From NCBI RefSeq assembly GCF_024502345.1, contig NZ_JALDNN010000001.1: DNA of 64,000 bases; one strand, given 5' to 3'. The position numbers were made by a program, and so were the translations under genes. Positions 52,190-59,939 of this stretch are shown one piece after another. Position 1 is the stretch's first letter; each line of letters begins with the position of its first letter. The stretch comes from Escherichia coli (lineage in GTDB: Bacteria; Pseudomonadota; Gammaproteobacteria; Enterobacterales; Enterobacteriaceae). The notes below the pieces were generated by a model. That model was not told the origin of the DNA and made no database searches. It saw only the letters and a list, made by a program, of their open reading frames with translations.

Positions 52190-52232
52190 ACGGTCCCCTC
52201 GCCCCTTTGGGGAGAGGGTTAGGGTGAGGGGA
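52190..52232. repeat. 43-bp GC-rich palindromic repeat unit (copy 1 of 2 identical direct copies)
   Basis: ACGGTCCCCTCGCCCCTTTGGGGAGAGGGTTAGGGTGAGGGGA, identical to 59897-59939; resembles the boxC class of enterobacterial intergenic repeats (class name from memory, unverified). Confidence 0.8.
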
Positions 52233-52300
52233 GCAGGGAAGCGCCAGTGGGAATTACCCTTTGCTCGCATTGTCGAATAAATCACTTCGTCATCACTCTG

Positions 52301-52327
52301 AAACCGGGGAAACCCGGTTTTTTTATC
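52301..52327 (+). terminator. rho-independent terminator of the trpS operon (AAACCGGGGAAACCCGGTTT + T-run)
   Basis: perfect stem-loop followed by TTTTTTT. Confidence 0.75.
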
Positions 52328-52442
52328 CTCATTTGCAATAATCCGAAAAAATGTGAAGCGCCTCGCCGTTTCCACATCTCACAGTTGCCACTTATCTTCA
52401 TTTTAATGAAGATATAAACATTCATTTTATTGAAAATATATT

Positions 52443-53348
52443 ATGCGTCGAACGTTTATCAAAAAAGAAGGCGTCGTTATCACGACGCTGGCCCGTTATT
52501 TGTTGGGTGAAAAATGCGGTAATAGGTTGAAAACCATAGATGAGCTGGCAACTGAATGCCGTTCATCCGTTGGCCTGACGCAGGCCGCGTTGAAAACGCT
52601 GGAATCAAGCGGAGCGATACGGATTGAACGCCGTGGGCGCAATGGCAGTTATCTGGTCGAGATGGATAACAAAGCATTGCTGAGTCATGTGGATATCAAC
52701 AACGTGGTATGTGCGATGCCTTTGCCCTATACCCGCTTGTACGAAGGTTTAGCGAGCGGATTGAAAGCCCAGTTTGATGGCATTCCTTTTTACTATGCGC
52801 ATATGCGCGGCGCGGATATTCGCGTGGAGTGTTTACTTAACGGCGTGTATGACATGGCGGTGGTTTCCCGACTGGCGGCGGAAAGTTATCTCACGCAAAA
52901 AGGGTTTTGCCTCGCGCTGGAGTTGGGGCCGCACACCTACGTTGGCGAGCACCAGTTGATTTGCCGTAAAGGCGAGTCCGCAAACGTGAAGCGCGTGGGG
53001 CTGGATAACCGTTCGGCGGATCAGAAAATCATGACCGATGTTTTTTTTGGCGGTAGTGATGTGGAACGAGTCGATCTCTCTTATCACGAGAGTTTACAAC
53101 GCATTGTTAAAGGCGATGTCGATGCGGTGATCTGGAACGTGGTGGCGGAAAACGAACTGACCATGCTGGGATTAGAGGCGACGCCGCTCACAGACGATCC
53201 GCGATTTTTACAGGCCACCGAAGCCGTGGTCCTGACGCGAGTCGATGATTACCCAATGCAACAACTGCTGCGTGCCGTTGTAGATAAACACGCCCTGCTT
53301 GCCCATCAACAACGGGTGGTGAGTGGGGAACAGGAACCCAGTTATTAA
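52443..53348 (+). CDS. yhfZ: putative transcriptional regulator YhfZ
   Basis: 301 aa; first gene of the yhfZ-yhfS cluster. Confidence 0.8.
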   Translation: MRRTFIKKEGVVITTLARYLLGEKCGNRLKTIDELATECRSSVGLTQAALKTLESSGAIRIERRGRNGSYLVEMDNKALLSHVDINNVVCAMPLPYTRLYEGLASGLKAQFDGIPFYYAHMRGADIRVECLLNGVYDMAVVSRLAAESYLTQKGFCLALELGPHTYVGEHQLICRKGESANVKRVGLDNRSADQKIMTDVFFGGSDVERVDLSYHESLQRIVKGDVDAVIWNVVAENELTMLGLEATPLTDDPRFLQATEAVVLTRVDDYPMQQLLRAVVDKHALLAHQQRVVSGEQEPSY

Positions 53349-53364
53349 ACGAAAGGCATCTGAT

Positions 53365-53727
53365 ATGGAAACCAGACTCAACCTGCTTTGCGAGGCAGGC
53401 GTTATTGATAAGGACGTCTGCAAAGGCATGATGCAGGTCGTCAACGTACTGGAAAAAGAGTGCCATCTGCCGGTGCGCAGTGAGCAAGGAACGATGGCGA
53501 TGACACATATGGCGAGTGCACTGATGCGCAGTCGCCGTGGTGAAGAAATTGAGCCATTGGATAACGAGTTGCTGGCAGAACTGGCGCAATCCAGCCACTG
53601 GCAAGCCGTTGTGCAATTGCATCAGGTGTTGTTGAAGGAATTCGCACTGGAAGTTAACCCGTGTGAAGAAGGCTATTTGCTGGCCAACCTTTATGGATTA
53701 TGGATGGCTGCTAACGAAGAGGTTTGA
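53365..53727 (+). CDS. yhfY: small PRD-domain-like protein YhfY
   Basis: about 120 aa from METRLNLLCEAG; ORF track start is 14 codons upstream. Confidence 0.7.
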   Translation: METRLNLLCEAGVIDKDVCKGMMQVVNVLEKECHLPVRSEQGTMAMTHMASALMRSRRGEEIEPLDNELLAELAQSSHWQAVVQLHQVLLKEFALEVNPCEEGYLLANLYGLWMAANEEV

Positions 53728-57439: not shown

Positions 57440-57450
57440 AAGGCACGACT

Positions 57451-58755
57451 ATGGATCTGTATATTCAGATTATCGTGGTGGCGTGCCTGACGGGTATGAC
57501 ATCGCTTCTGGCGCATCGCTCGGCGGCTGTTTTTCATGACGGCATCCGCCCGATCCTGCCGCAACTGATTGAAGGCTATATGAACCGTCGCGAGGCGGGG
57601 AGTATCGCTTTTGGTCTGAGCATTGGTTTTGTGGCCTCGGTGGGGATCTCTTTTACCCTGAAAACCGGGCTGCTCAACGCATGGTTACTCTTTCTTCCTA
57701 CCGATATCCTCGGCGTACTGGCGATAAACAGCCTGATGGCGTTTGGTCTTGGCGCTATCTGGGGCGTGTTGATCCTTACTTGCCTGTTGCCAGTAAACCA
57801 GCTGCTGACCGCGCTGCCGGTGGATGTATTAGGTAGCCTCGGGGAATTAAGCTCGCCGGTGGTTTCTGCTTTTGCACTGTTCCCGCTGGTGGCGATTTTC
57901 TACCAGTTTGGCTGGAAGCAAAGTCTGGTCGCCGCCGTGGTTGTTCTGATGACCCGTGTGGTAGTCGTGCGCTATTTCCCACATCTTAACCCTGAATCCA
58001 TCGAAATCTTTATTGGCATGGTGATGCTGCTGGGGATCGCGATAACTCACGACCTGCGTCATCGTGATGAAAATGATATTGATGCCAGCGGGCTTTCGGT
58101 GTTTGAAGAACGCACGTCGCGGATTATCAAAAACTTACCCTATATCGCCATCGTGGGAGCATTGATTGCCGCCGTTGCCAGCATGAAGATTTTCGCCGGC
58201 AGTGAAGTGTCGATCTTCACTCTGGAGAAAGCGTACTCCGCAGGCGTAACGCCGGAACAATCGCAAACGCTGATCAACCAGGCGGCACTGGCAGAATTTA
58301 TGCGCGGGCTGGGTTTTGTACCGTTGATTGCCACCACCGCCTTAGCAACGGGTGTGTATGCAGTTGCGGGCTTTACCTTTGTTTATGCGGTGGGCTATCT
58401 CTCGCCGAATCCGATGGTTGCAGCGGTATTAGGCGCAGTGGTTATTTCGGCGGAAGTCTTGCTGCTTCGTTCGATCGGCAAATGGCTGGGACGCTACCCG
58501 TCGGTGCGTAATGCGTCGGATAACATCCGTAACGCCATGAATATGCTGATGGAAGTGGCGCTGCTGGTCGGTTCGATTTTCGCAGCAATTAAGATGGCGG
58601 GTTATACCGGATTCTCTATCGCGGTTGCCATTTACTTCCTCAACGAATCCCTGGGCCGTCCGGTACAGAAAATGGCGGCACCGGTCGTGGCAGTAATGAT
58701 CACCGGTATTCTGCTGAATGTTCTTTACTGGCTTGGCCTGTTCGTTCCGGCTTAA
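57451..58755 (+). CDS. yhfT: polytopic inner-membrane protein YhfT (putative transporter)
   Basis: 434 aa; about 10-12 hydrophobic segments. Confidence 0.8.
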   Translation: MDLYIQIIVVACLTGMTSLLAHRSAAVFHDGIRPILPQLIEGYMNRREAGSIAFGLSIGFVASVGISFTLKTGLLNAWLLFLPTDILGVLAINSLMAFGLGAIWGVLILTCLLPVNQLLTALPVDVLGSLGELSSPVVSAFALFPLVAIFYQFGWKQSLVAAVVVLMTRVVVVRYFPHLNPESIEIFIGMVMLLGIAITHDLRHRDENDIDASGLSVFEERTSRIIKNLPYIAIVGALIAAVASMKIFAGSEVSIFTLEKAYSAGVTPEQSQTLINQAALAEFMRGLGFVPLIATTALATGVYAVAGFTFVYAVGYLSPNPMVAAVLGAVVISAEVLLLRSIGKWLGRYPSVRNASDNIRNAMNMLMEVALLVGSIFAAIKMAGYTGFSIAVAIYFLNESLGRPVQKMAAPVVAVMITGILLNVLYWLGLFVPA

Positions 58756-58766
58756 GGAAGGCACCT

Positions 58767-59852
58767 ATGAAGACGTTTCCTCTGCAAAGCCTGACGATTA
58801 TTGAGGCGCAGCAAAAGCAGTTTGCGCTGGTGGATAGCATTTGTCGCCATTTCCCCGGCAGCGAGTTTCTTACTGGCGGTGATTTAGGCTTAACGCCAGG
58901 ACTGAATCAACCGCGCGTTACCCAGCGTGTGGAACAGGTGCTGGCTGATGCATTTCACGCACAGGCTGCGGCGCTGGTGCAGGGCGCGGGGACTGGCGCG
59001 ATTCGCGCCGGGCTGGCTGCTTTGCTCAAACCGGGGCAGCGTCTTCTGGTGCATGACGCGCCTGTTTACCCGACGACACGGGTTATTATTGAGCAGATGG
59101 GGCTGACGCTTATTACTGTTGATTTCAATGACCTGTCGGCACTGAAGCAGGTCGTCGACGAGCAACAACCGGATGCGGCGCTGGTGCAGCATACGCGCCA
59201 GCAGCCGCAGGACAGCTACGTGCTGGCAGATGTGCTGGCAACGTTGCGCGCGGCAGGTGTTCCAGCGTTAACCGATGACAACTATGCGGTGATGAAGGTG
59301 GCGCGAATCGGCTGTGAATGCGGCGCGAATGTCTCGACATTTTCCTGCTTCAAGCTATTTGGGCCAGAGGGTGTTGGTGCAGTGGTCGGCGATGCTGATG
59401 TTATCAACCGTATTCGCGCCACGCTTTACTCCGGCGGTAGCCAGATCCAGGGCGCACAGGCGCTGGAAGTATTGCGTGGGCTGGTGTTCGCGCCAGTGAT
59501 GCACGCGGTGCAGGCAGGGGTATCTGAACGGTTGCTGGCTTTGCTTAACGGTGGTGCGGTGCCGGAAGTGAAAAGCGCCGTCATTGCCAATGCGCAGTCG
59601 AAGGTGTTGATTGTCGAGTTTCATCAGCCGATTGCCGCCAGGGTGCTGGAAGAGGCGCAAAAGCGCGGTGCCTTGCCTTACCCAGTGGGTGCAGAGTCGA
59701 AATATGAAATCCCGCCGCTTTTTTATCGACTTTCCGGAACGTTCCGCCAGGCGAATCCGCAACTCGAACATTGTGCGATTCGCATTAACCCGAATCGCAG
59801 CGGTGAAGAGACGGTGCTGCGGATTTTGCGTGAGAGTATTGCGAGTATTTAA
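58767..59852 (+). CDS. yhfS: PLP-dependent enzyme (aminotransferase / C-S lyase-like) YhfS
   Basis: 361 aa. Confidence 0.8.
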   Translation: MKTFPLQSLTIIEAQQKQFALVDSICRHFPGSEFLTGGDLGLTPGLNQPRVTQRVEQVLADAFHAQAAALVQGAGTGAIRAGLAALLKPGQRLLVHDAPVYPTTRVIIEQMGLTLITVDFNDLSALKQVVDEQQPDAALVQHTRQQPQDSYVLADVLATLRAAGVPALTDDNYAVMKVARIGCECGANVSTFSCFKLFGPEGVGAVVGDADVINRIRATLYSGGSQIQGAQALEVLRGLVFAPVMHAVQAGVSERLLALLNGGAVPEVKSAVIANAQSKVLIVEFHQPIAARVLEEAQKRGALPYPVGAESKYEIPPLFYRLSGTFRQANPQLEHCAIRINPNRSGEETVLRILRESIASI

Positions 59853-59896
59853 TGCTGGATAGCACCGTTCGGAAATCAAGCTAAATTCCGCACTGA

Positions 59897-59939
59897 ACGG
59901 TCCCCTCGCCCCTTTGGGGAGAGGGTTAGGGTGAGGGGA
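59897..59939. repeat. 43-bp GC-rich palindromic repeat unit (copy 2, identical to 52190-52232, same orientation)
   Basis: exact 43/43 identity read directly. Confidence 0.8.

Follow-up and report, generated by a model that had tools for sequence, protein, structure and literature searches.

The yhf block and its flanking repeats

In the window analysed here, a 64,000-nt stretch of Escherichia coli DNA (contig NZ_JALDNN010000001.1), a block of eight genes from yhfZ to yhfS lies between trpS and frlR and is bracketed by two copies of a 43-nt repeat of the dispersed BoxC family. The copies, ACGGTCCCCTCGCCCCTTTGGGGAGAGGGTTAGGGTGAGGGGA, occupy 52190-52232 and 59897-59939, both on the + strand and with 0 mismatches between them, and form the longest exact direct repeat of the window, with a start-to-start distance of 7,707 bp. 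A search that allowed up to three mismatches still returned 2 matches in the window, with 0.00 expected from 100 shuffles, and alignment of the two copies' flanks found no similarity outside the 43 nt. An earlier note on this DNA, made from the letters alone, had claimed identical 43-bp repeats in the same orientation around yhfZ-yhfS, the left one next to trpS; the exact pair bears out the first claim, and the gene context agrees with the open reading frame (ORF) list and the annotation of homologous loci. Its description of each copy as sitting at a convergent gene end holds for the right copy (yhfS/frlR) and fails for the left, which separates the co-directional trpS and yhfZ. Genome comparisons make it highly probable that recombination between the two direct copies removed the 7,664-nt segment between them, together with one copy, in natural populations, and did so at least twice. 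The features of the locus are as follows.

51170..52174, + strand: trpS, left boundary gene (ORF list; annotation of homologous loci)
52175..52189, + strand: 15-nt left flank TATCAAAACGCTCGG, which marks the left copy (alignments; kept in all block-less alleles examined)
52190..52232, + strand: left BoxC/TM_ECO copy, type A mm (exact match; 36-nt core at 52196-52231; fits the consensus)
52233..52260, + strand: family spacer plus about 7 nt (TTACCCT) of a truncated, inverted type B partner (alignment with other loci)
52233..59896, + strand: deletable segment, with the trpS terminator and yhfZ, yhfY, yhfX, yhfW, php, yhfU, yhfT and yhfS (7,664 nt; 7,707 bp are lost in total with one repeat copy)
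52300..52330, + strand: intrinsic terminator 3' of trpS, inside the deletable segment and downstream of the left copy (terminator scan, site at 52300-52321)
52443-53348, + strand: yhfZ, first gene of the block (ORF list)
58767-59852, + strand: yhfS, last gene of the block (ORF list)
59897..59939, + strand: right BoxC/TM_ECO copy, homologue of K-12 TMECO no. 15 in the yhfS-frlR gap (exact match)
59963..60009, no strand assigned: palindromic, REP-like element in the gap from the right copy to the frlR stop (class by eye only)
60012..60809, - strand: frlR, right boundary gene, convergent with yhfS (ORF list; annotation)

Loss of the block in natural genomes

We searched 5,426 complete E. coli genomes with a synthetic junction in which one 43-mer joins 500 nt from the trpS side to 500 nt from the frlR side. 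This junction was matched over 100% of its length, in a single piece, in 342 genomes, where trpS is adjacent to frlR; the block interior was found in 5,083 genomes and was absent from 343. The earlier note had predicted that strain comparison would reveal the block lost with one copy left behind, and these 342 genomes are that product, with the trpS flank on the left of the remaining copy and the frlR flank on its right. All 11 block-less loci that were fetched read trpS stop, TATCAAAACGCTCGG, one BoxC, and a frlR-side flank that still contains the REP-like element of 59963-60009. They differ by single-nucleotide polymorphisms (SNPs) in the flanks only, including a G-to-T change 1 nt before the repeat in ET350. 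The filled allele thus has two direct copies and the empty allele one, bordered on the left by the left copy's outer flank and on the right by that of the right copy.

Of the 342 block-less genomes, about 310 belong to the O55:H7/O157:H7 lineage, CB9615 and RM12579 among them; the others are about 28 diverse strains and 2 genomes with a separate allele, here called K-type. Of the two things that the earlier note took as telling against deletion, wide dispersal of the repeat is found (about 19 sites per genome), but the lack of any strain deleted between the copies is not, many strains carrying the deletion. We also considered a mobile island with an att-type site for site-specific recombination and rejected it because the bracketed block has no recombinase gene: annotation of the block lists YhfZ, YhfY, YhfX, YhfW, Php, YhfU, YhfT and YhfS only, with no recombinase or integrase among them.

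The frl operon next to the lost block is decaying in the same lineage, to judge from a frlD pseudogene and a frlA frameshift. The gene frlD is annotated as a pseudogene with an internal stop in the O55:H7 strain DEC5B, in the related CEC01302 and in strain 150 (frlD at 5262-6047; loci L004, L006 and L007), and frlA is frameshifted in CEC01302 (L006).

Identity of the repeat

The repeat was first named BoxC, then the potential intrastrand triplex (PIT) element, and was renamed TM_ECO by Holder et al. 2015 (NAR, PMC4666352), who cite the BoxC papers of the 1990s and work of Maher and colleagues from 2000. Its consensus, CCCTCNCCC-N3-6-GGGNGAGGG-N3-GGGNGAGGG, has one C-rich and two G-rich blocks (PMC4666352), and a regular-expression scan with it matched both window copies, starting at 52196 and 59903. 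The 36-nt core of both, CCCTCGCCCCTTTGGGGAGAGGGTTAGGGTGAGGGG, is that of K-12 TMECO nos. 7, 11 and 15 (Table 1 of PMC4666352), and both are of subtype 'A mm' (type A second loop TTA, one mismatched triplet), which is the most common TM_ECO subtype in K-12 (PMC4666352). In the supplement of the same paper, K-12 TMECO no. 15 lies between frlR, 73 nt away, and yhfS, 41 nt away. We found the identical 43-mer in the yhfS-frlR gap of a K-12-like genome, and the right window copy is the positional homologue of this catalogued element. The earlier note had guessed at the boxC class, correctly on each of these counts.

Both window copies are intergenic by the ORF list, and family matches to the 43-mer occur in 5,425 of the 5,426 genomes, at a median of 19 and a maximum of 35 places per genome; the taxonomic range of the family has already been published (PMC4666352). 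Both 43-mers are therefore ordinary members of a dispersed family. TM_ECO oligonucleotides form an intrastrand purine-motif triplex in vitro, as seen by circular dichroism and nuclear magnetic resonance, and none has been detected in vivo (PMC4666352). Folded as single-stranded DNA with ViennaRNA, which models Watson-Crick pairing only, the repeat forms a hairpin of -10.1 kcal/mol.

The left copy has additional similarity (query positions 1/11-86) to other family members, and not to the right copy. In the 28 nt that follow, the sequence agrees with the spacer and the opening bases of the inverted type B partner at other loci, and the left element is thus the remnant of a composite BoxC pair. 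Intact pairs with a type B partner lie between alx and sstT in K-12 and between yijF and gldA, and the right window copy has no such extension.

BoxC copies at this locus show characteristic kinds of mutation in other strains. The left copy of TB06051 lacks GGGTTA, one G-block register (L021 12716-12752), the right copy of UC4316 has TAT as its first loop, and the two copies of the two-copy strain 23S01245-7 differ at 3 sites; in this last strain yhfS is annotated as a pseudogene with an internal stop (L019 19294-20379). Relative to K-12 and most two-copy strains, the window has 8 additional bases, TTCGGAAA (59868-59875), in the gap from the yhfS stop to the right copy, and TB06051 has TTCGGCAA at this site.

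Locus states among E. coli genomes

The region between trpS and yhfZ was surveyed with a query that joins the trpS end to the yhfZ start, and 60 genomes were sampled across the ranking of matches. The block was absent from 4 of them, and the remainder fell into three left-spacer types, in all of which the trpS terminator is kept.

Window type: 122 nt 3' of the trpS stop with BoxC (52175-52296 in the window); 17 of 60 sampled, 1,524 genomes by direct count
K-12 type: 143 nt, REP-like (a REP/BIME-like pair), at the same insertion point (L002 2865-3007); 19 of 60 sampled
B2 type: no insert, 13-15 nt (L003 2984-2998); 20 of 60 sampled

In about two-thirds of genomes the left copy is accordingly missing, and REP elements or nothing at all come after trpS. 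On the other side of the block, the yhfS-BoxC-frlR junction is present in 2,951 genomes and absent from 2,132 block-bearing ones, in which the frl operon is wholly missing and yhfS is followed directly by yhfL. Examples are E2348/69, TB06052 and RM10809-3, where yhfL and cysG come next (L003 10554-10659; L008 20880-20985; L017). The frl operon (59853-64000 in the window) is thus a presence/absence polymorphism in its own right, and frl-bearing sequence diverges directly 3' of the yhfS stop, which places the right BoxC 41-49 nt inside the edge of the island.

Both copies were carried by 7 of the 9 window-type loci examined, and we put two-copy genomes at about 1,200, a figure that is an estimate only. 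By this estimate, two-copy genomes are a minority, and they are the sole possible substrates for the deletion. The earlier note had also raised the idea that the repeats mark an old insertion junction. This stands in part: each copy belongs to a segment that, compared with copy-less genomes, starts right after a stop codon, the left segment after that of trpS and the frl-island segment after that of yhfS. In a comparison bearing on insertion of a MITE or transposable element, no target-site duplication was seen between the filled (window) and empty (E2348/69) spacers, whose neighbouring bases also differ and blur the boundaries.

Two further observations concern the block and its flanks. The window locus (48900-63000) is a mosaic, with a trpS-side flank of the type found in TK3046 and A2 and a frlR-side flank that equals that of A16 over 833 nt; none of the genomes in the collection matches this whole locus exactly, and the best match to the block interior is 98.8%. 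The block interior was found in 5,098 places in the 5,083 records, with a maximum of 2 per genome, and the 15 extra places could be blocks interrupted by insertion sequences, or else reciprocal duplications of the kind that unequal exchange between BoxC copies should generate.

Polarity of the locus and number of losses

Every major locus type carries the block, even those without BoxC (B2 strain E2348/69) or with a single copy (K-12), and its presence is therefore the older state. The reverse history, in which the block-less chromosome is older and a circular molecule with one BoxC entered the chromosomal BoxC by Campbell-type integration to give two copies, is very improbable indeed. In formal terms, integration through a single repeat is the mirror image of excision, and the block-less alleles of the W type described below occur on a number of diverged haplotypes, the old O55:H7/O157:H7 lineage among them. 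However, a circle with one BoxC would itself need a two-copy genome as its source, the block occurs in 5,083 of 5,426 genomes, including types that lack BoxC (B2/E2348) or have one copy (K-12 type; TB06052), and the K-type block-less allele, found in 2 genomes only, is nested in a common two-copy haplotype.

This nesting also bears on the number of losses. The frlR-side flank has two haplotypes, W (G, G, T and G at +5, +22, +23 and +29) and K (A, A, C and A at the same positions), and both occur among two-copy genomes; the frlR-side flank of the window is W. Among the block-less loci fetched, 10 of 11 are W, and the exception is F2_407_2_2, which shares the K-type allele with one other genome, 7_33_46A, both of bovine origin. 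Between F2_407_2_2 and the two-copy strains TK3046 and A2 there are 3 differences in the 3,000 nt to the right and 12-16 in the 2,800 nt to the left; between it and the other block-less alleles there are 33-55 on the left side and 33-87 on the right side. Lineage-specific SNPs common to F2_407_2_2, TK3046 and A2 reach up to -42 on the left and begin at +5 on the right, and the other block-less alleles sampled differ from F2_407_2_2 at these sites. For the K-type allele, then, the empty state is nested in a filled haplotype, and the most plausible reading of the allele is a recent, independent deletion that took place in a two-copy lineage.

A separate observation concerns the flanks of the right copy (59885-59951), which form an inverted repeat, TTCCGCAC ... 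GTGCGGGA, that lengthens its hairpin. Its arms differ at complementary positions by haplotype, being CCGCAC/GTGCGG in the window and CCGTAC/GTACGG in K-12 (haplotypes W and K).

An alternative is that deletion happened once and that recombination between an existing block-less allele and a chromosome of the K haplotype later produced the K-type allele. The locus has clearly been reshuffled by recombination, ET350 and the window itself being mosaic. Even so, the SNPs of its own lineage that F2_407_2_2 carries at -42 and +5 limit any imported tract to about 105 nt or less, centred on the repeat, with both crossovers in or beside it, and a crossover inside the repeat would be BoxC-mediated recombination in any case. 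Foreign SNPs near the F2_407_2_2 junction are moreover largely absent within +/-3 kb, and we regard a single deletion as very unlikely. Separate deletions therefore remain our reading: the flanks indicate that the block was lost on at least two separate occasions. The older, W-type allele is now found in the O55:H7/O157:H7 lineage and in about 28 diverse genomes and may reflect one old event or several; that its empty state is derived would follow from the distribution of the block only. Among block-bearing genomes, TB06052 comes closest to the O55:H7 left flank, at 99.4%, but this strain has neither frl nor the right copy.

Terminator and RNA-level roles of the repeat

The earlier note had offered a further idea, that the copies act as RNA 3'-end stability or termination elements, and we found no support for it. 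In its fuller form, the copies would be kept because they stabilise or terminate the 3' ends of trpS and yhfS transcripts, and the deletion would be incidental. Each copy is indeed located in the 3' untranslated region of a + strand gene, and both fold into strong RNA hairpins (-30.7 and -36.1 kcal/mol), with a z-score of -3.5 for the right copy with its flanks. The fold of the left copy, however, has a z-score of only -1.1, and this copy is missing from the two-thirds of genomes that have REP elements or nothing after trpS. Neither copy is followed by a T-run, so the combination of hairpin and T-run occurs at neither, and Rfam at its gathering threshold gave 0 matches over the whole window. 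BoxC elements were also without promoter or terminator activity in earlier work, according to the passage of Holder et al. (PMC4666352) that cites it. An RNA-level reason for keeping the copies therefore seems to us to have very little probability. The repeat as terminator was rejected on the earlier work just cited and because the terminator scan called no site at either copy and placed the nearest + strand site at 52300-52321, 3' of the left copy.

This trpS terminator lies inside the lost segment and is removed by the deletion, and the scan found no + strand terminator-like site in the block-less allele.

Mechanism

We propose that the two BoxC copies, in direct orientation around the yhfZ-yhfS block, recombined to leave trpS, the 15-nt flank, one BoxC and the REP element, followed by frlR. 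The exchange could be RecA-mediated crossing-over, either intrachromosomal or between sister chromatids, or template switching at a replication fork stalled by the hairpin or triplex of the element. Efficient RecA pairing needs a minimum of about 25 bp; the 43 bp of the repeat exceed this, and a simple crossover would be sufficient. The hairpin or triplex-forming potential of BoxC may stimulate the exchange. Established here are what the element is, the exact one-copy junction and how frequent it is in the population, and the independence of the K-type event.

Several points weigh against this account. The W-type block-less alleles lie on several proximal left-flank haplotypes, and in ET350 the allele looks like a short import from a divergent donor into a K-12-like background: about 15 SNPs lie at positions -301 to -34, counted from where the trpS stop ends (L005 4000-4267), in a tract that ends at the block-less junction, and the right flank passes from the W haplotype to a K-12-like one between +52 and +94. 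A block-bearing relative of this divergent trpS tract, which could have pointed to a third independent event, was looked for in the collection and does not occur there, and only 2 genomes, one besides ET350, are at least 99% identical to it. The deletion is also rare, with two or a few events among the estimated 1,200 or so two-copy substrates, and the recombination pathway is one that we infer. Nothing in these data favours BoxC over any other 43-bp repeat as a substrate, and there is no evidence of triplex formation in vivo (Holder et al., PMC4666352).

A stronger version of the mechanism would make BoxC copies preferred breakpoints, at which the hairpin or triplex strand stalls replication and promotes template switching between copies. 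We consider this unlikely. If it were true, operon-sized segments bounded by BoxC would behave as modules whose gain and loss are more frequent than sequence length alone predicts; at this locus the modules would be the yhf block and the frl island, both of which have a copy in front of them.

Significance and comparison with known systems

A known element and an ordinary mechanism together provide a clean, recurrent natural case of repeat-mediated operon loss, which is not surprising in itself. Holder et al. (PMC4666352) had already connected BoxC motifs with variable loci, and their tally for TMECO 15 gives 'region missing' in 28 of 56 genomes; they considered recombination between distant copies possible in principle and gave no example. 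Our search, whose coverage is incomplete, found no paper that describes this deletion and, apart from theirs, nothing relevant on the yhfZ/yhfS/O157 polymorphism or among later work on PIT elements. The locus therefore offers, at nucleotide resolution, a natural example of an event only speculated about for BoxC, in which two distant copies removed a block of eight genes. One deletion product is fixed in the O55:H7/O157:H7 lineage, and block loss explains the difference in gene content at this locus between K-12-like/B1 strains and enterohaemorrhagic E. coli. Loss of the block also takes the trpS terminator with it, and the natural two-copy strains identified here are a test bed for whether triplex-prone repeats are recombination hotspots.

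Like REP and BIME elements, BoxC copies are small palindromic repeats found at the same kind of intergenic site, but they form a separate sequence family: the 43-mer has no REP consensus, and the REP-like unit at 59963-60009 is a distinct element. Deletion between short direct repeats in E. coli proceeds by RecA-dependent crossing-over above a minimal pairing length or by RecA-independent template switching. The loss of the yhf block resembles it in the direct orientation of the repeats, in the loss of the interval plus one repeat, and in a hybrid junction that keeps the outer flanks; it differs in being a natural polymorphism and not a reporter assay, and in having as its repeat a structured family element that is rich in G/C. 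The window copies share with BoxC/TM_ECO elements at large the consensus, the 'type A mm' core, the intergenic place and the dispersed, multi-copy spread. What sets the present case apart from the published account of that family (PMC4666352) is a specific pair of copies with a precise one-copy product, whose frequency is known in 5,426 genomes and for which at least two independent events are documented.

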